A stretch of DNA of 64,000 bases from Candidatus Poribacteria bacterium (GCA_964291315.2 OZ219753.1:192001-256000), one strand, 5' to 3'. Positions 8,981-46,432 are shown, counted from the first letter of the stretch. Made by a program: numbers and translations. Notes: a model not told the origin generated them from the letters alone.

Positions 8981-9058
8981 TTGACAACGTTTAAATCTAT
9001 GGTAAATTTACCATATAATAAGTTTTTTCTTGACAAAAGAAAACTACTTTTGTATAAT
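8981..9058 (+). promoter_or_regulatory. tandem sigma70 promoters with an 18-bp palindromic operator
   Basis: TTGACA 8981/TAAATT 9003; TTGACA 9030-17 nt-TATAAT 9053; perfect palindrome TATGGTAAATTTACCATA 8998-9015. Confidence 0.7.
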
Positions 9059-9159
9059 CTTTAATAGAACCCATATTTTACCTTTACAGAGTTTTCAATT
9101 TTTGCTAAACTTTTAAGGTACTTGTTTAGATATTGACTTTCGGGCGAAGATGCGGTTTT

Positions 9160-9450
9160 CCAATGGTGTTTTAACAAATCGTTCTCGCGAAATTCTATTC
9201 TCAAGGTGTCGGATCGCTCTTTATGAAATCGTAAAGGACGCCAACGAAATAGCCCTGCGTTACTCGACTTAACGAGAATATAACCGTGGGTTCTCAGCAT
9301 CGCTGTTGAATTGTACAAGCAACAACGATCGCGAAACCAACTTTCCCTAAAATCTAATTTTGCAGACTAATAGGGAAAGCACCGAAAGTTTTTAGCACAC
9401 CCAATCCAACGGGTGTATTTTGATAATTTAAATTTAAGGAGTTAACTCTA
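9160..9450 (+). ncRNA. putative large structured 5' leader RNA, copy A
   Basis: Multiple stems; co-linear similarity and covariation with 46051-46380 (minus). Confidence 0.6.
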
Positions 9451-10104
9451 ATGACAAAATTGTTTAGAACCTTAGCCTTATTATTAGCAGGCTTGCTTGC
9501 TGTTTCCATGCTCGCCGGCTGCGGAGGCGATGATGATACTAGTGATGAGGAACCCACCCCGGCGAGCTTTACAAGCGCAAACCCGCCAAGCGGTTCAACC
9601 ATTGCCTCTAATGCAAGTGTCACCCTCACTTTCGACAACGCACCGACTGATGTTACAGTAAGTGCCGGCACTCACACAGTTACCGGTAAAACCGTGACCG
9701 TCACCGGTTTCACACCCGGAGCCTTAAGCCTAACAGTCACTTGGGCTGATGGGACCCAGGCTCTTAACTACACCGTTACTGCTCCTGACACGGATGCACC
9801 ACAAGTTACCGGTGGAACCGTTGAAGACGGGGCAGAAGATGTCGATCCCGAGGAAATCAATAGCGGTGCTATGCTGGAAGTTACCTTCAATGAAGACGTA
9901 ACCGGAAACATCGCGCTTCAAACCGAAGCCGGCGATGATGTCGGTTGGCTCGGAAAAGTTGAGGGGAATACAGCTACTCTCGAACTTGTTAAGGGCAAAG
10001 AGATCGGCAACGAAACCACCTACGTTATCGCAGGTAAGGTTTCTGATGCCGCAGGCAACCCGGCTGACGTTAACATAACCTTTGTAACCAAGGGTAAAGA
10101 GTAA
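9451..10104 (+). CDS. lipoprotein with two bacterial Ig-like (Big_5/SbsA-like) domains
   Basis: Lipobox LAGC, acidic linker, Thr/Val-rich beta strands, LTFD/VTFNE and VSDAAGN motifs; AAGGAG RBS. Confidence 0.85.
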   Translation: MTKLFRTLALLLAGLLAVSMLAGCGGDDDTSDEEPTPASFTSANPPSGSTIASNASVTLTFDNAPTDVTVSAGTHTVTGKTVTVTGFTPGALSLTVTWADGTQALNYTVTAPDTDAPQVTGGTVEDGAEDVDPEEINSGAMLEVTFNEDVTGNIALQTEAGDDVGWLGKVEGNTATLELVKGKEIGNETTYVIAGKVSDAAGNPADVNITFVTKGKE

Positions 10105-10127
10105 ATTTTGAGGCTATTTCGGTACCG

Positions 10128-10163
10128 AGGGCGGCGTATTTTCGAATACGTTGCCCTTTTTTT
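10128..10163 (+). terminator. intrinsic terminator
   Basis: AGGGCGGCGTATT-TTCG-AATACGTTGCCCT followed by a T run. Confidence 0.85.
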
Positions 10164-10238: not shown

Positions 10239-10328
10239 TTGACACAATTTTTCATTAATGCTATGATCGTGTAGTTAGATTCAAAAGCAGATATTTTTTT
10301 GAACAGTTTTTGAAAAGGTGTTGTCTAA
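10239..10328 (+). promoter_or_regulatory. sigma70 promoter plus candidate ECF promoter of the sigma gene
   Basis: TTGACA 10239-17 nt-TATGAT 10262; GAACAG 10301-16 nt-GTCTAA 10323. Confidence 0.6.
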
Positions 10329-10365
10329 TCAATCAGACATCAGAACACTTAAGGAGTAAAGTTCG

Positions 10366-10950
10366 GTGGAAAGAACTGAAGCCTTGCTCATAGCTGACCT
10401 TTGCGAAGGTGATGAGTCGGCGTTAGCACCGTTAATAGAAAAGTACAAACGTATGGTGTATCGTCTTGCAGTGCGGATTACTAAGAATCACGCAGATGCC
10501 GAGGATGTCATGCAAGAGACTTTTTTCAAGGTGTACCGCTCAATCCGAACGTTCCGAAGGGATGCGGCTTTTGAGACTTGGGTCTATCGAATAGCCGTCA
10601 ATGAAGCATTGAACTTCGTTAAGCGTAGGAAGCGCCGACAGGAACGTACGATTGAGAGAACAGCAGATACTGAATTTGCAGCGGATATGCGGGAGCGTGC
10701 AGCTCAAGCCAATGACCCGCATGTACACGCCGAAAAAGCTGAACTCCGTCGCTATGTTACAGCGGCGGTCAACAGTCTCTCGTTGAAACACCGTACCGTG
10801 GTAATTCTGCATGAATTTGAAGGATTAACACATGCCGAGATCGCTTCTATTCTTAGTTGTTCAGAGGGAACTGTTCGTTCTCGACTGCACTATGCACGCA
10901 AAAAACTCCGAAATTTGCTCAAACCGTATGTAGATGCCGGGGCAATTTAG
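10366..10950 (+). CDS. ECF RNA polymerase sigma factor
   Basis: DAEDVMQETF, FETWVYRIAVN, EIASIL..SEGTVRSRLHYAR; GTG after AAGGAG. Confidence 0.93.
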   Translation: MERTEALLIADLCEGDESALAPLIEKYKRMVYRLAVRITKNHADAEDVMQETFFKVYRSIRTFRRDAAFETWVYRIAVNEALNFVKRRKRRQERTIERTADTEFAADMRERAAQANDPHVHAEKAELRRYVTAAVNSLSLKHRTVVILHEFEGLTHAEIASILSCSEGTVRSRLHYARKKLRNLLKPYVDAGAI

Positions 10951-11023
10951 CTTCTAAATGCTGATCTCCGGTAGCGACATAGAATTATAAGCGCAAAAGC
11001 CCATAATGTCGTGGAGAATACTG

Positions 11024-12016
11024 ATGAGCTTGAAGTGCCAGAAAACACAACGTCTTTTATCAGACTATTTTGATGGAACGCTTTTCGAACGGCAGATGAA
11101 AGCTGTCGACAAGCATCTCAAAGCTTGTCTGTACTGTAAACGAGAAGCCATTAACCTGAAAAAGATGTCCTACCTCCTCGAAAATTTTTACGTTGAACCT
11201 GAAGCGTCCGACGCGTATTATGCACGATTCACAAAGGAGCTCCATCAACGCATTGAACAGACTGCACCTATTCCTTTCTATCAACGTCTGCACGATATGG
11301 GTACTAAGTTGACTTGGCAGCTCTTGACGCAGCTGCGCCGGGCTGTTGACCATTGCATCCCTTGTGGATTCACCACTCTGCGGCAAAAGATGCTGCCGTA
11401 CTACGCACTCGTAGCAACGATGATGATGCTTCTTGTGGTGCCCTTCGCCTTGAAGCTTCTGCCTTCAGGTGAGAATGGAGAACAGACCCTTGGACACTTA
11501 TACGCAGTAGTAAAGGCACGACTTTTTTCTACATCAATAGATGTTTCGCGTCAGCCCGCGGCAACGCTTGCTATCCAACGGGATACTGCAGCGCAACCCA
11601 CCGAGGTCCGTCGAAACGTCAGTAGAAACCGTACAACAGAGATGCTTATTGTGGACTCAGGCACCGATGTCTGGCAATTTACTGACGACCCATTGGCTGA
11701 TGGATATATTTTAACTACACTTCTTGAAAGTAGTGAAGGCACACTCCCTAGCGTGGCTTTAGACATTGATTCAAAACTTCTAACCTATGCTGAATTATCA
11801 AGCCAAGGCACACCATGGGAATACCCGACAGCCCGGGAGGTACTCACCGACGGTAGGCATACCCTCCTTTTGCTACAAGGTATCCATTTAGGGCAGCAGG
11901 TGCCTCAACAGTATCAACGCAAAAGAAGTCAACCTGAAGATTTCTCAAGGAAATTGTTGGACGTATCGTTGGAAACCCTCTCAATTACAGAAATCTACGA
12001 TTCAATAGAATTATAA
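11024..12016 (+). CDS. zinc-finger (ZAS, zf-HC2) transmembrane anti-sigma factor
   Basis: C...LSDYFDG...HLKACLYC motif, single TM helix, directly after the ECF sigma gene. Confidence 0.8.
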   Translation: MSLKCQKTQRLLSDYFDGTLFERQMKAVDKHLKACLYCKREAINLKKMSYLLENFYVEPEASDAYYARFTKELHQRIEQTAPIPFYQRLHDMGTKLTWQLLTQLRRAVDHCIPCGFTTLRQKMLPYYALVATMMMLLVVPFALKLLPSGENGEQTLGHLYAVVKARLFSTSIDVSRQPAATLAIQRDTAAQPTEVRRNVSRNRTTEMLIVDSGTDVWQFTDDPLADGYILTTLLESSEGTLPSVALDIDSKLLTYAELSSQGTPWEYPTAREVLTDGRHTLLLLQGIHLGQQVPQQYQRKRSQPEDFSRKLLDVSLETLSITEIYDSIEL

Positions 12017-12051
12017 GTTGATATATTGACAATGTGTATTTTATTAATTAA

Positions 12052-12185
12052 CTCCTCGCCCGCGGGTTGCGGGAGAGAATGAATGCCTGTGGAACCGTTA
12101 TAAGACCACAGCGGGTGGCTGTGGGCGGTGAAGCAGGAACTACTAATCTGCACTGAAGCAACGTTCCTACCGTGACAGGGCAGGT
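12052..12185 (+). ncRNA. putative structured 5' leader of the TPR gene
   Basis: GC-rich island with four stems ending just before the AAGGAG RBS. Confidence 0.4.
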
Positions 12186-12204
12186 TAAAAGGAGCAGAAT
12201 ACGA

Positions 12205-15200
12205 ATGAACCCAAGGATTTTGGGAATTATCGGCGGCCTTGCCTTGATAATCGCGCTCCTCTCACCTTTAATGATGGGAAGCTCTAAAAAGGTGGAGCAG
12301 CTGTACCAAGCTGCTGAAGATTTACGCGGGCAAGCAGACTATGAAGGCGCGATTGAAAAGTATAATGAGGCACTCGAAGAATCAACAAAACGAGGCGTTA
12401 AAACCGAAGTTATTGACAAAGACTTTGCAACCCTCGCTAACTATAAAATTGCTGTTAGTTACTCACGACTTGCAGAACAAACAGGTGATGTCAATTATTA
12501 CGACACTGCGGTTGGGTACATCGAAAAGGTCGCGCCTACAGCGACGATCCCCAAACATCAGGAGGGACTCACCTACCTCTGGGGACATATCCTCTATCGC
12601 ACGGAGCAGTTTGAATTGGCAGAACCGAAGTTTACGCAGCTCATTGAGAACTTTCCGAACAGTCTCTTTGTTGAAAACGCTTGGTATGCTATTGGACAAC
12701 TGAACTTCAAATTACAGAACTATGAAGACTCCCGACAAGCATTCAAAGCCGTTCTTGACGGTTTCCCGAATTCGGACTTCAAAGATGATGCGCAGCACCT
12801 CATCGCGCAGTCGTTCCTCAACGAATCTAACTATGAACAAGCCTATCAGGAGTTCGATAAAATCGCGACGGAGGAGTTCAAGAACTACCCGGACTTGCAA
12901 GCTGAAGCGATGTACAAGGCCGCGTATAGCCTAAACCAGCTGGGTAGGGATGATGAAGCTATCGGTCGCTACACAAACTTCATCACACAGTTCCCGGAAA
13001 GCCAATACGTCACAGCGGCATACTTCGACCAAGGTGCAATTTATGCTCGCCAGAAAGACTATGACAATGCACGCGTCAATTACGAGTTAGCACTGCAAAA
13101 TACAGCTGACCGGACGCTACAAGCAGAAATTCAGTCTGCCATCGGCCGCACGTACTTCGACCAAGGGGACTATGAAAACGCTATCGTTTCATACACGTTA
13201 CTCCTCGAAGAATACCCGGAGAGCGATTATATTGCAGAAGCAAAGCTCGGTATTGCAGATAGTTACTTCCGGTTGGATAACTGGAGTCAAGCAACCGTTG
13301 CATACGAACGGGTCATCAATGAACACCAAGAAGCTACTGATTTTATCCCTTACTGTTCTTATCAGATCGCTGAGGCATACTATAAACTCGGCACTGATCA
13401 GAGGAAAGCCGGGGATGTTGAATCAGGAACAGCAACGCTTGAACTCTCATTGCAATGGTATCAGAGAACGATCGACGATTTCCCGCAAGATCCTGTTGCG
13501 CCGCATGCACTCTATGGGGCAATCTGGGCTCTTAACGATCTCGGACGTAAAGATGATTTAGAAATCATGGCACGCGAGTTTATCGACAAGAACAAGAATG
13601 ATAACGAGTTCGACATCCTCGCTGCGGAGGTCCAACTCCGCTTTGCTGACATCAAGCGAACAGAGTTCAAACAGTACGTTGAAGCTGCTGAAGAATACGC
13701 AAAGTTATGGGATTACCGTCCGCTGCCTAAGTTCCATCTCGTCAAATTGATGGGTAAGTTTTTTGAAGGACGTTCCTACTACGAAGCCGCCAAACCCGGG
13801 GGGTATCAGGAAGGCGATCTAGACGCTGAGTTCAATACGGAATACCTTCAGATGTCTGTCTCAGCGTATCAAGAGGCAATAGGCAGGTTTAATGACGAAG
13901 CCTTCCTACCAGGTGTTGCCGAGGAACGCTATGATGACTTCAGCGAGCGTGTCGCCCAAGTGGAAGCCTGTATCATGAACGAAGCACTGTCTCATGAAAT
14001 GCTTGGTGATTGGGGAGAGGCACGCGATCGGTACGCCTCTATCCCGGAAACCAGCGAGTACTACGAACGCGCGCTCCTTCTCGTCGCTAATAGCCACGTT
14101 AAGCAAGGCAATAAAGACGATGCGATTGACTACTACAATAGCATTTTGGATAAACTTGCCGATGCTGACAATAGATCGTTGGCAGAAATCAAGCTCGCTG
14201 ACCTGCTCCGCGCAGAAAAACGGTTTGAAGAAGCTGCTGTCCAGTATCAAGCTGTAGTTGACGGTAACCCGTCGGGTGAATATGCTGACGACGCGCTTTA
14301 CCTCGTTGGCCTCTGCTACTACCAAGCCGCGGCTGATAATCCGGACCTCTTGGCCCCCTCTGAAACGGCATTCAAACGCGTGATTTCAGATTACGCCGAT
14401 AGCCCGAACGCCGTTGAAGCCTATTATGGGTTGGCACTCGCTTACCGTGATGCCGCTCAAAAACAGGACGATGCAGACAAATGGCCACTTATTCTTCAGA
14501 TCGCTGACGAAGCTAACAGTAAATATGCTTCAAGTGAAAACGAGCTTGTTCTCAAGACCCTTGGACATATTGATCTGATAAAAGCCACTGCTATTGAAAA
14601 TAGTAGCGAAGTGGTGGATTTAGAGGCATTAGTGATGTCTCTAAGGCGGATCGTCGAGAACACCGGGGCACCTGGAGATGCTCGCAGCCGTTCACAGTTG
14701 AAGATTGGACATACCTACTATTCTGCTGAACGCTACGAGGAAGCTCTCGCGGAATATCTCGCTTTTGTGCAAAATTTTCCAAACAGCGAGCTGGCACCAA
14801 ATGCCCAGTACCAAGCGGCTGTTTGCCATTATCAAATTGCACAAGCTGCGACAGATGCCGGTAGCAAGCAGTTAAGCCTCCAGAATACTGTAAGTGCTGC
14901 TCAAAAAGTGGCGACTTTAACAGATGATGCTGACAACCTGATTAGCGCGAATTACACTGCAGGATTGGCGAAACTTGGACTAGACGATAATAAAGGTGCT
15001 GTGGACGCGTTCAAAGCCGTCACTGCATTAGAAGGGCAAACCAAGGACGAGGCGCGGATGTCTCTTATTTTTCAAGCCCATTCTCGTCTTGCTGAACTCA
15101 ATGGCTCCCTTGGTGACCACGCCGCAGCTGTGCAAGAGTATCAGTATATTGTCGAGCACACTGATGATCCAGATATGAAGGGACGTTCCTACTTCGCAAT

Positions 15201-16896
15201 GGCGTTTGCCCAAGAGGAGCAGTTGAAAGCATATCCAGAGGCGTTGATGAGCTACCAGAACTCCGCTGAATTGGTAAAGGACCCGCTTGTCAGAGCACAG
15301 TCCTACTATCGGATGGGTTTGATCTATCAAGATCGGCTTAAACAGCCCGAAAAAGCATTAGAGACTTTTCAGACGTTGATCGGTGAGTACAGCGGTTCGG
15401 ACAATGCAAATGTCGCTTCAATGGTGGCTGACGCTGGCATCCGGCGCTCCACGCTCTATGTCGAGTTGGGGCGTTTGGATGAAGCGATCGCCGAGGCCCT
15501 TGATACGCGCGACCGGACCTTAGAGAATCCGCAAGCAACTGTGGCAGAAAGAGCTGCTGCTCAATACAACGTTGGGTTCCTCTATTTCGACAAAGCACGT
15601 TCTCTCTACTCAACGGAGGCCGGTACAGAGCTGCAACCTTATATTGATACGAGTCGTGAGGCTGCTGGTTCGTTTCATGAGGTAATAGCTATCGCAGCAC
15701 CGGTCGAGGAAGCTGACAAACAAAGTGTCATCCCGTATGTTCAAAATTCACTTTTTCAAGCTGGACAGATCTACTACTCCGTCGGCCTCGGCGTGAAGCT
15801 GCCGCAAGACTTGACAAGTGCAATTGCCCCACTCACAGCATTTGTGAGCTATGCCGATAAAGGTATTTTCCCGATGTCCGACGATCTCCGGAAAAACATA
15901 GAGACGGCACTGAATTACCTTGCTGCTGCTAACTTCGAGTTGGGCAGGATGCAAGTTGGTATGGATGGCGAGATGTCTGAAAAAGCGGTGAATTACTTCC
16001 TCGCAGCTGGAGATGTGTTCCGGGATATGGTACGCCGTTATCCAAGTGCTAAAGATGCAGCTTCTTGGCAATATCATGTCGGTGAATCGCACTACGCAGC
16101 GCAACAATTCGAGAAAGCGATTACGGAGTATGAGAAGGTCCGTTCTGTAGATCGGAATCACAAGAGTGCACCAGAATCACTTTATGCGATCTCGACGTGT
16201 GCACAGCTTCTCAGTCAAGCTGCTGAAGAGGCTGGCGATGAAGAGGAAAAACAGCGCTGGTATGATCGACTTTTTGAGGCGAACGAAGTACTCGCTGCTG
16301 AGTACCCGAACAGTCAGTACACGGCTGATGCCCTTATTAACATCGGCAATAAGTACTACCATTCTGGGTCCGAACAAGGTGTCGAGCTAGCAGAACGTAT
16401 CCGTCTTTATCAAACCTCGATCGGTTACTACCAAAGAGCGATTGATACACCTGGAATCGGAAATGAGTCGAAATCGCTGGCACTCAACTATCTCACCGAT
16501 ACAGCGAATGCTCTTACTTTCCATGAGTATGAGGTAGCAACCGAGCTACTCAATAAAGCGAAATCCACAAGAGGTGAAGAGCAGTCAACCACCATCCAAG
16601 CCGCTATCGATGCTTTTTCGAAGATCATCGAAACCTATCCGATGACCAAGTACGCTGATCTAGGGTTTGCACAGATTGGTGACGCGTATATGGTGTTAGC
16701 AGATAGTGACGATAAGTATTTCAACGATGCGTTGGATTACTTCAACCGCTTGTGGGCGAAATACGAGACAAGCCCACCCGTAGATTCAAAAGTCAGTCAG
16801 GCTCTCAAGTATGCAATCAGCCAGATTCAGGTAATCCAAAGCTACATGCGAGCAAACAACTTGGAAATTCGGGGTGGTGCTGCTGGTGGTGAATAA
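12205..16896 (+). CDS. very large tetratricopeptide-repeat protein with N-terminal membrane anchor/signal
   Basis: Many TPR units with FPNS/YPES/YPNS turns (BamD/CpoB-like); ATG 12205 after AAGGAG. Confidence 0.9.
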   Translation: MNPRILGIIGGLALIIALLSPLMMGSSKKVEQLYQAAEDLRGQADYEGAIEKYNEALEESTKRGVKTEVIDKDFATLANYKIAVSYSRLAEQTGDVNYYDTAVGYIEKVAPTATIPKHQEGLTYLWGHILYRTEQFELAEPKFTQLIENFPNSLFVENAWYAIGQLNFKLQNYEDSRQAFKAVLDGFPNSDFKDDAQHLIAQSFLNESNYEQAYQEFDKIATEEFKNYPDLQAEAMYKAAYSLNQLGRDDEAIGRYTNFITQFPESQYVTAAYFDQGAIYARQKDYDNARVNYELALQNTADRTLQAEIQSAIGRTYFDQGDYENAIVSYTLLLEEYPESDYIAEAKLGIADSYFRLDNWSQATVAYERVINEHQEATDFIPYCSYQIAEAYYKLGTDQRKAGDVESGTATLELSLQWYQRTIDDFPQDPVAPHALYGAIWALNDLGRKDDLEIMAREFIDKNKNDNEFDILAAEVQLRFADIKRTEFKQYVEAAEEYAKLWDYRPLPKFHLVKLMGKFFEGRSYYEAAKPGGYQEGDLDAEFNTEYLQMSVSAYQEAIGRFNDEAFLPGVAEERYDDFSERVAQVEACIMNEALSHEMLGDWGEARDRYASIPETSEYYERALLLVANSHVKQGNKDDAIDYYNSILDKLADADNRSLAEIKLADLLRAEKRFEEAAVQYQAVVDGNPSGEYADDALYLVGLCYYQAAADNPDLLAPSETAFKRVISDYADSPNAVEAYYGLALAYRDAAQKQDDADKWPLILQIADEANSKYASSENELVLKTLGHIDLIKATAIENSSEVVDLEALVMSLRRIVENTGAPGDARSRSQLKIGHTYYSAERYEEALAEYLAFVQNFPNSELAPNAQYQAAVCHYQIAQAATDAGSKQLSLQNTVSAAQKVATLTDDADNLISANYTAGLAKLGLDDNKGAVDAFKAVTALEGQTKDEARMSLIFQAHSRLAELNGSLGDHAAAVQEYQYIVEHTDDPDMKGRSYFAMAFAQEEQLKAYPEALMSYQNSAELVKDPLVRAQSYYRMGLIYQDRLKQPEKALETFQTLIGEYSGSDNANVASMVADAGIRRSTLYVELGRLDEAIAEALDTRDRTLENPQATVAERAAAQYNVGFLYFDKARSLYSTEAGTELQPYIDTSREAAGSFHEVIAIAAPVEEADKQSVIPYVQNSLFQAGQIYYSVGLGVKLPQDLTSAIAPLTAFVSYADKGIFPMSDDLRKNIETALNYLAAANFELGRMQVGMDGEMSEKAVNYFLAAGDVFRDMVRRYPSAKDAASWQYHVGESHYAAQQFEKAITEYEKVRSVDRNHKSAPESLYAISTCAQLLSQAAEEAGDEEEKQRWYDRLFEANEVLAAEYPNSQYTADALINIGNKYYHSGSEQGVELAERIRLYQTSIGYYQRAIDTPGIGNESKSLALNYLTDTANALTFHEYEVATELLNKAKSTRGEEQSTTIQAAIDAFSKIIETYPMTKYADLGFAQIGDAYMVLADSDDKYFNDALDYFNRLWAKYETSPPVDSKVSQALKYAISQIQVIQSYMRANNLEIRGGAAGGE

Positions 16897-45609: not shown

Positions 45610-46050
45610 TTACTCTGATCTGGTATTCTGTGGTTCACAACCGCCGGAGCAGTCATAGGAATTACATTGGGCGACACAAATGCAATCTGAAACACATTTA
45701 TCTGGAGGGCACTTCTTGACAGTACAGTCATTTGGGTCACAACTTGTGCTGCCGCAGCCGTGACTAATTCCGAGACACTCACACGGATCCTCTTCTGATA
45801 CACTGATAGAGGCATCAGTTCCAACACTTGGAACATCAGTTTCTTCACTGCCACAGCAGCTTCCTGTTTGCACAACAGCTATATCTGAAGAAACAGCATT
45901 CGCGTCTCTCACACAGCAGTTCCGCTTTTGAGTCTCGGTGTTTGCAACAAAGCTGTCATACGTACCCGCGAAAACGAGTCCTCCGACAAAAAGTAGAGCG
46001 ATTAAAACTTGCTAGAGAACATTCGGTTTGTTCAAAAATTTGCTCAACAT
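45610..46050 (-). pseudogene. exported Cys-rich protein (16 Cys) with in-frame TAG at codon 13
   Basis: AAGGAG + ATG 46050; MLSKFLNKPNVL*QVLIALLFVGGLVFAG... continues in frame into ORF 45610-45912. Confidence 0.7.
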
Positions 46051-46380
46051 TACTGTTAAATCTCCTTAATTGTTTTCGGCTTTTATTGGATCCACCAGGC
46101 ACAAGCATGCCGGGGGACAATTCTTGATAGTCTACAGAGGATTGCTTTCGGAAGGCAAAGTGAAAGCAGCTTGGCCTTAGTTGGGAATCCCCTGGTCATT
46201 GTAAAAGGTGCTAACCGAAACAATTCACAAAACGCGCAGCGTTTATGATATACTTCCGGTGAGCACGACCCACCTCGGGTTATGGTAGGGCTCTCCGCGT
46301 CGAGGGGCGCTTTCACCCCCTCGACGCATCTGAAAATCTTTGAGAAACTGCCCATTCCAAAACGATTTGATTAACATTGA
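46051..46380 (-). ncRNA. putative large structured 5' leader RNA, copy B
   Basis: 11-bp stem 46297-46327 and further stems; co-linear similarity with 9160-9450. Confidence 0.6.
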
Positions 46381-46432
46381 AAAAATCTCCAAGAAAAAAA
46401 ACAACGCTGCTCTTTGCATCACTATAATTATA

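Follow-up and report, generated by a model that had tools for sequence, protein, structure and literature searches.

Among the large structured RNAs of bacteria, the raiA motif, OLE, GOLLD, ROOL and HEARO are orphans whose function is unknown. A different role is filled by the leaders of the E. coli ompA gene and of S-layer genes, 5' UTRs that stabilise the mRNAs of abundant envelope proteins or enhance their translation. The Poribacteria are uncultured sponge symbionts. For this phylum Rfam has a Poribacteria-1 RNA motif, and our search of the literature returned no report of RNA-based regulation in Poribacteria. Here we describe a leader RNA of a Candidatus Poribacteria bacterium, found in a stretch of 64,000 nucleotides of its genome (GCA_964291315.2, OZ219753.1:192001-256000), which is referred to below as the window and whose numbering is used throughout unless a contig is named. 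An earlier reading of this sequence (the original prediction) had proposed that one large structured leader occurs twice in the window, as copy A on the plus strand and copy B on the minus strand, and had suggested a comparison with Rfam. That comparison returned no known family for either leader: no model of Rfam 15 (4227 models) matches the 64-kb window or 20 related loci at its gathering score, and at E ≤ 10 the two leaders yield only chance-level snoRNA, miRNA and intron matches (E 0.7–8.6). Copy A itself proves to be real: a conserved leader RNA with structure that has so far gone uncatalogued.

The stretch 9160–9450, to which copy A had first been assigned, has a consensus sigma-70 promoter upstream and, downstream, the lipoprotein gene whose ATG is at 9451, and represents the 3' three quarters of what we term the A-type leader (9065–9450, plus strand; about 386 nt from the predicted start to the ATG). 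The promoter (9030–9058, plus strand) is composed of TTGACA (9030–9035), a 17-nt spacer and TATAAT (9053–9058) and agrees with the consensus at 12 of 12 positions; it is kept in the aligned orthologs and reads TTTACA-17-TATAAT in the sister genus. From it we infer the RNA itself and a transcription start predicted near 9065. The conserved element begins right behind the promoter and is therefore about 386 nt long; its first 90 nt (9065–9150), which lie outside the coordinates first proposed, are the most conserved part of the leader. At the other end, a ribosome-binding site (RBS), AAGGAG (9436–9441), is followed by the gene (9451–10104, plus strand), which encodes a protein of 217 aa with a signal peptide, a lipobox (LAGC) and a Big_5 domain (Pfam, E 6.8e-9). 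A strong intrinsic terminator, a 14-bp stem followed by TTTTTGTT (10127–10158, plus strand), closes the transcript, and the ECF sigma factor gene further downstream has its own promoter (10239–10267, 11 of 12 consensus positions); the leader therefore serves one gene only.

Two features flank this unit. On its 3' side, a separate unit with its own promoter (10239–16896, plus strand) encodes the ECF sigma factor, a zf-HC2 anti-sigma factor and a TPR protein of 1574 aa, and an ECF sigma gene follows the lipoprotein gene in 36 of the 44 related loci with enough flanking sequence. On its 5' side, just upstream of the A promoter, the segment 8981–9019 (plus strand) holds a TTGACA box, which is conserved, together with a 16-nt perfect palindrome, ATGGTAAATTTACCAT (8999–9014), which is probably the binding site of a dimeric regulator.

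Homologs of the A leader, whose existence the original prediction had made a point of, are present throughout the genus and in other genera of the family. By BLAST, the full-length leader was recovered from 34 of the 36 genomes of the genus at 72–83% identity; the two negative genomes are 92% and 78% complete. More distant relatives were sought with R3, a covariance model of the core of A (9190–9342), in a sample of 151 genomes under strict filters, so that the resulting counts are lower bounds: within one Poribacteria family, 75 of the 99 other genomes contain the core, with all five genera of the family represented (56/56, 15/38, 2/2, 1/1 and 1/2), and none of 51 genomes from eight other families of the phylum gave a match. 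Each positive genome has exactly one match. An ortholog of the lipoprotein gene lies directly downstream in all 31 loci returned by, or fetched after, the search with the RNA model; the lipoproteins of the sister genus at such loci are only 42–52% identical. In the reverse direction, the leader is present at 46 of 71 loci found through the protein; we take the remaining 25 to be mostly paralogs or partial matches, because many of them match part of the protein or are the second locus of a genome. The A element is thus a single-copy element, always placed before the same gene, within one family of Candidatus Poribacteria.

The leader evolves at a slower pace than the gene downstream of it. Measured against the window, identity is 0.770 for the leader and 0.733 for the coding sequence, the leader being higher in 36 of 42 loci; for the sister genus the values are 0.630 and 0.611 (13 of 15 loci). 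Compared with the next intergenic spacer the difference is larger, 0.773 against 0.586, with the leader ahead in 30 of 30 loci. A coding function was considered and rejected: across 30 orthologs there is no conserved open reading frame and no three-base periodicity, the minimum over these orthologs of the longest open stretch being 21–31 codons per frame and the variable columns being divided evenly among the three phases (57, 56 and 57).

A stable fold is indicated for the single sequence (minimum free energy −95.1 kcal/mol, z −2.75) and also by the alignments. Within the genus, an RNAalifold model of 96 pairs is satisfied in 97.7% of cells, compared with 43–52% when partners are slid, and 16 of its pairs are changed on both sides, compared with 3–8 in the slid controls, which ignore the kinship of the sequences. 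A core alignment of 47 sequences (44 distinct) was assembled from 28 leaders, non-redundant at 94%, out of a set of 74, and from 19 loci fetched after the R3 survey; although it was fitted to R3 and thus leans towards that model, it shows 89.3% pairing against 37–52% with slid partners, double-sided changes in 19 of 36 pairs, and a covariation score of 0.305 against 0.05–0.13, these controls again taking no account of kinship. A larger set of 91 leaders combines the 74 with those from the sister lineage, of whose 19 loci 17 were used, because no −10 box had been found in L191 and L192. As the sequence is U-rich, a helix scan of this set was noisy, and only helices changed on both sides were used from it.

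The fold begins with a 5' hairpin (9079–9120, plus strand) composed of H1 (9079–9084 with 9115–9120) and H2 (9088–9097 with 9103–9113), in which RNAalifold and pair counts reveal two pairs with compensatory changes (AU in 24 and GC in 5 sequences; GC in 24 and AU in 4). Its segment CUAAAC (9105–9110) may instead pair with GUUUAG (9124–9129), an alternative predicted on 23 diverse leaders. Helix S2 (9142–9188, plus strand) joins 9142–9149 to 9180–9188 around a variable loop with a conserved AUCCAAUGG; among 23 leaders, double-sided changes affect three adjacent pairs in 6, 10 and 11 cases, and its arms read GCGAGG/CCUCGC in the genus and GGAACUG/CAGUUCC in the sister genus. The central domain (9190–9285, plus strand), conserved in sequence, contains H11 (about 9215–9240; 6 of 7 pairs changed on both sides in the core alignment), and a hairpin at 9245–9266 (UAGC/GUUA) in which one pair, 9253–9259, covaries (of 23 leaders, 11 have CG and 10 have UA); CAAACGAAAUAGCC is one of the sequence blocks of this domain. 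It is followed by a long hairpin (9290–9337, plus strand), in which H13 (9290–9294 with 9333–9337) surrounds H14 (9299–9308 with 9320–9329), with double-sided changes in 5 of 6 and 7 of 7 pairs of the core alignment, respectively. Hairpin H15 (9342–9378, plus strand; UUUCCC/GGGAAA) varies in size and is missing from the sister genus. The last hairpin, H16 (9397–9428, plus strand), pairs 9397–9402 with 9411–9416 and runs into a conserved A/U-rich stretch, AUUYUGAUAAAC; 5 of its 6 pairs are changed on both sides, and a script located it, immediately 5' of AUUYUGAU in every case and with 28 different sequences, in 90 of 91 leaders. Insertions among the A leaders fall within hairpin loops. A thus folds into at least six hairpins or helices with compensatory changes, H2, S2, H11, H13, H14 and H16.

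Helices H9, H10 and H12 of the RNAalifold model, which would enclose the central domain, were discarded. They are not kept in the sister genus, being unpaired at some positions in 10–14 of 44 sequences, approximately the number of sister-genus rows, and the core fold of A is therefore not settled by that model. The stems read by eye in the original prediction had mixed fates. Its CUUUA/UAAAG hairpin is part of the covarying H11, but the UGAAAUCG loop assigned to it is exact in 0 of 29 orthologs; its enclosing stem CUAUU/AAUAG is pairable in 450 of 455 cells over 91 leaders, but with one-sided changes only, and competes with the UAGC/GUUA hairpin, which has the covarying pair mentioned above. 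Neither the long-range stem UCGCGA/UCGCGA (paired in 292 of 546 cells) nor the stem GUGUC/GACGC (293 of 455) is kept.

Between the 5' hairpin and S2 lies a near-invariant segment, UUGACUUUCGG (9133–9143, plus strand), for which three candidate partners can be written: CCGAAAGUU (9382–9390), GAAAUU (9189–9194) and the RBS itself, GGAGUUA (9438–9444). The first of these pairings is canonical in 732 of 819 cells over 91 leaders. The pairing of 9134–9140 with the RBS (9438–9444) is a prediction from 23 leaders in which none of its pairs shows double-sided changes, and it is weak, with 3 G-U among its 7 pairs. That with GAAAUU, next to S2, is a candidate proximal pairing according to our reading of the alignments. 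Both long-range partners are near-invariant over the 91 leaders, and since these pairs never vary, covariation neither supports nor refutes them. A second candidate for sequestering the RBS, CUCGUU..UAGAU, was predicted within the genus and did not prove general: CUCGUU is deleted in two lineages (L098 and L105), and the sister genus has a non-complementary sequence instead.

The mechanism that we think most likely would have the A leader act in cis on the lipoprotein mRNA, with the start of translation, the fate of the mRNA, or both, set by alternative pairing of UUGACUUUCGG. In a first state this segment would pair with CCGAAAGUU (9382–9390) and close the whole folded domain, leaving the RBS free behind H16 and the A/U-rich standby stretch; in a second it would pair with the RBS (GGAGUUA, 9438–9444). 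The choice between the states would depend on a factor, be it a metabolite, a protein or an RNA, that is recognised by the central domain (9190–9285), and H16 with the A/U-rich stretch would serve as a border and ribosome standby site or as a weak terminator. We lean, by a modest measure, towards A being a cis-acting functional leader RNA of this general kind. A riboswitch is one possible form of it. As in riboswitches, the structured core is conserved, its helices covary, and nucleotides of junctions and loops are invariant; no clear expression platform was found, the candidates being the weak terminator-like H16, for which no covarying antiterminator was seen, and an RBS pairing that is invariant together with its competitor. 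The single associated gene, that of a Big_5 lipoprotein, holds no metabolic hint and thus no clue to a ligand.

Together with AUUUUGAU, H16 passes a loose terminator rule in our scan; it has only 6–8 pairs, its U run is broken (AUUCUGAU), the U-rich part begins 5 nt later in the sister genus, and it is far weaker than the lipoprotein gene's own terminator. It resembles a weak intrinsic terminator, or a structured border before a ribosome standby site. A covarying antiterminator was searched for among the leaders, and pairing was seen in at most 4 of 90 of them in any 10-nt bin; a classical terminator/antiterminator switch at H16 looks less likely, no alternative partner having been found at a consistent place.

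Among the alternatives, the one that survives best is that A senses nothing and is a constitutive 5' UTR that stabilises the mRNA of a very abundant envelope lipoprotein and boosts its translation. We regard it as possible, if on balance doubtful. Like the ompA leader, A has a stable hairpin at the 5' end, a strong promoter and a strong RBS, and the details agree with such a role: the promoter is consensus, the RBS is AAGGAG, the hairpin near the 5' end is highly conserved, H16 and then an invariant A/U-rich stretch stand ahead of the RBS, H16 lacks an antiterminator in our searches, and the element is tied to a single gene. However, a length of about 390 nt, at least eight helices, and single-stranded blocks that stay invariant across genera whose proteins are 42–52% identical exceed what protection of an end would need, and several conserved segments have mutually exclusive partners.

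It is improbable that the region is instead mainly a gene for an RNA about 355 nt long, with its end at H16, which would act in trans or as a leader-derived sRNA and supply the lipoprotein mRNA by read-through. The passing of the loose terminator rule by H16 with AUUUUGAU, the presence of H16 in 90 of 91 leaders and the greater conservation of the RNA part relative to the coding sequence could be read in this way; yet the stem of 6–8 pairs and the broken U run (AUUCUGAU) make H16 a far weaker stop than the gene's own terminator, the promoter scan found no promoter between H16 and the ATG of the lipoprotein gene, and the strict linkage to one gene, in 31 of 31 loci, also speaks against it.

Very improbable, in our judgement, is the original proposal itself, by which a single large riboswitch-like RNA would be present as two paralogs, A and B, with covariation of the stems from one to the other. 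The observation that gave rise to it was accurate. In a search of the whole 4.40-Mb genome for CAAATCGTT followed within 5–40 nt by TTCTCAA, with one mismatch allowed in each, all 7 further blocks were found only at window positions 9175 (plus strand) and 46369 (minus strand), other places having 0–2 of them, so that the two leaders do share the same short blocks, at least nine, in the same order. A TATAAT also stands upstream of both, at 9053–9058 for the ATG at 9451 in A and at 46432–46427 for the ATG at 46050 in B; both leaders precede genes for exported proteins, and both families are confined to the same Poribacteria family. Comparison with shuffled controls gave a divided answer: the local alignment of A with B is at the level of chance (z 1.39; 61 of 500 dinucleotide shuffles score as well), and the end-free global score is somewhat raised, 3.1–3.7 standard deviations above controls (z 3.68 and 0 of 500 against shuffles; z 3.08 and 1 of 500 against random genome segments), part of which stems from a similar ribosome-site context.

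Against common descent stands the behaviour of the blocks within each family. They were followed in one alignment of 30 A leaders and in another of 22 of the 24 extracted B-like sequences (L062 and L068 excluded), and none of the 11 is conserved in both. Among 29 A orthologs, TTCTCAA is kept in 29, GTGTC in 29, AGCCCT in 20 and TGAATTGT in 28; these four are exact in 0–2 of 21 relatives of B. The only block often kept in B, GACGC (9 of 21), is exact in 0 of 29 A orthologs. The UGAAAKCG loop, to which a T-loop-like character had been ascribed, is conserved in neither family: none of 29 A orthologs has TGAAATCG exactly, and none of 21 relatives of B has TGAAAGCG, so that the T-loop reading falls. 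Profiles and models do not cross-detect either. With nhmmer, the A profile matches A only and the B profile has 17 matches at E ≤ 0.01 in the genome, none of them at A, with no cross-match at E ≤ 10; with filters off and at E ≤ 10, the models of the two halves of B (R1 and R2) find nothing at 9065–9455, and R3 finds nothing at 46050–46420; in the window each of the three locates its own locus alone. Helix layouts, derived separately for each family, differ, with no equivalent helices at equivalent positions, and the blocks that A and B share do not occupy corresponding structural positions; for example, TGAATTGT forms the loop of a hairpin in A but one strand of a junction in B, where TTCTCAA is located at helix P2. 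Finally, A occurs once per genome and the B type in up to 9 copies. A constitutes a separate RNA family, with no relationship to copy B or to any family in Rfam, and the blocks shared by A and B are no evidence of common descent.

Copy B (46137–46362, minus strand) is a member of a different, multi-copy and modular leader family found before genes for small secreted proteins. Its domain 1 (46265–46362) is a three-way junction of P1 (GGCAG/CUGCC), P2 and P3, with an additional P4; domains 2 and 3 (together 46137–46268) comprise P5 (GCUAACC/GGUUAGC) with P6 and P7 (GGAUUGC/GCAAUCC) with P8. The GAGGGG/CCCCUC stem recognised in the original prediction is part of P3, and the long-range stem GGAAU/AUUCC, paired in 65 of 110 cells, is not kept. 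Overall, 90.2% of cells pair, compared with 38–40% when slid; for domain 1, in 31 sequences, the figures are 90.0% and 29–49%, with 13 of 24 pairs changed on both sides. The type was modelled as two shorter covariance models, R1 and R2, which score 64.8 and 99.7 bits at B, a match by construction, B being in the sets from which they were built. Modules also occur singly, and the genome itself has 7 R1 matches, 6 R2 matches and 17 nhmmer matches at E ≤ 0.01. Members outside the window were placed at C4:3100564-3100794, C4:1844996-1845092, C3:193855-193952, C2:26386-26486, C2:28905-29005, C1:345019-345177, C4:26427-26562, C1:216933-217045 and C4:31863-31970. Outside this genome, R2 was positive in 61 of 99 genomes of the same family, where a genome has up to 9 copies, and in none of 51 genomes from the rest of the phylum; the B-type family has no match in Rfam.

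A downstream reading frame could be called at 26 B-type loci, in all cases on the same strand, with a median length of 106.5 aa. Of their products, 22 have an N-terminal hydrophobic segment by a crude rule and 11 an ADA/AEA-type motif; 22 lack a Pfam match above the cut-off, and the rest include one Laminin_G_3 and one protein with LRR repeats. Several have similar signal peptides (MK.SL.QI.AI.CIL...ADAD) and unrelated mature parts. At several loci, according to our reading of the alignment, a TTGACA-17-TAAAAT promoter abuts domain 1. Leader and signal peptide appear to behave as if they were one cassette. Near-identical pairs of leader plus gene occur at C2:26386-26486 and C2:28905-29005, 2.5 kb apart, and at C4:31863-31970 and about C4:32632-32710, separated by 0.7 kb, an arrangement that points to whole cassettes having been duplicated in tandem recently. 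At C4:341964-342035 (L008), a consensus promoter is followed by the first half of B domain 1 only, 85% identical to B over 46 nt, and then by unrelated sequence; it looks like a truncated or recombined B-type copy.

Copy B itself shows several irregularities. A tandem 14-nt direct repeat (ACGTGTATTTGTGA / ACGTGTATTTGTGT; 46459–46432, minus strand) overlaps its −10 box, and owing to this repeat there is no good −35 box at 17 nt. The reading frame behind it (46050–45610, minus strand) meets an in-frame TAG at 46014–46012 after 12 codons and then runs for 133 codons, opening with the signal-peptide-like QVLIALLFVGGLVFAG ahead of any canonical start; its product is Cys-rich and has no Pfam match. 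The frame could be a pseudogene, an assembly error or a case of read-through.

That the conservation of A is due to control at the DNA level (operators or nucleoid-protein sites) and not to an RNA can be dismissed as exceedingly improbable: there are palindromes 5' of the promoter (ATGGTAAATTTACCAT, 8999–9014) and in the H14 loop (TTGTACAA), but compensatory changes in H11, H13, H14, H16 and S2 preserve RNA pairing, G-U included, and not the DNA sequence, and insertions fall in hairpin loops.

The preferred reading of A as a cis-acting leader RNA can be extended. The A-type leader might have the sensing role in a control RNA of a new kind, unusually large at about 390 nt and either riboswitch-like or protein-binding, that sets the level of a major surface lipoprotein in sponge symbionts, and with the multi-copy B-type leaders it might form a lineage-specific RNA layer acting on the mRNAs of exported proteins, for instance on their translation, stability or targeting; we rate this as rather unlikely. 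Of the lineage-specific cis-regulatory RNA or riboswitch for exported proteins that had been envisaged, the following part stands: A is a lineage-specific, structured, non-coding leader of a lipoprotein gene, and B likewise precedes a gene whose product has a signal-peptide-like segment. The analysis delivers a well-delimited, strongly conserved leader RNA, for which a working alignment and part of the structure are now available; it has also brought to light a second family of leaders, multi-copy and associated with secreted proteins. Either could be entered in Rfam, and either is a target for metatranscriptomics, in-line probing and reporter assays. The case is also instructive in that short blocks shared by two leaders of one genome mimicked the covariation of paralogs, with no conserved block common to the pair of families.

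Set beside the systems described so far, A has counterparts in several of them. With the B-type family it shares a position as the 5' leader of an exported-protein gene, the same Poribacteria family as host, absence from Rfam, and a CCGAAAG some tens of bases before the start codon; the B type differs in the distribution of its helices P1–P8 over three separable modules, in its copy number of up to 9 per genome and in the many different small secreted-protein genes that it precedes. The Poribacteria-1 motif comes from the same phylum, but no Rfam family has a meaningful match, even at E ≤ 10, on the sense strand of A or B. Like the orphan riboswitch candidates and large structured RNAs, A is long, lineage-restricted and non-coding, with covarying helices and highly conserved unpaired stretches; unlike the orphan large RNAs held in Rfam, it is without an Rfam match and is a strict 5' leader of one gene, in single copy, in one Poribacteria family. 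With the leaders of ompA and S-layer genes it has in common a strong promoter, a long leader, a stable 5' hairpin, a strong RBS and a product at the cell surface, but compared with the ompA leader it is three times longer, has a far higher sequence conservation and carries segments with competing partners.
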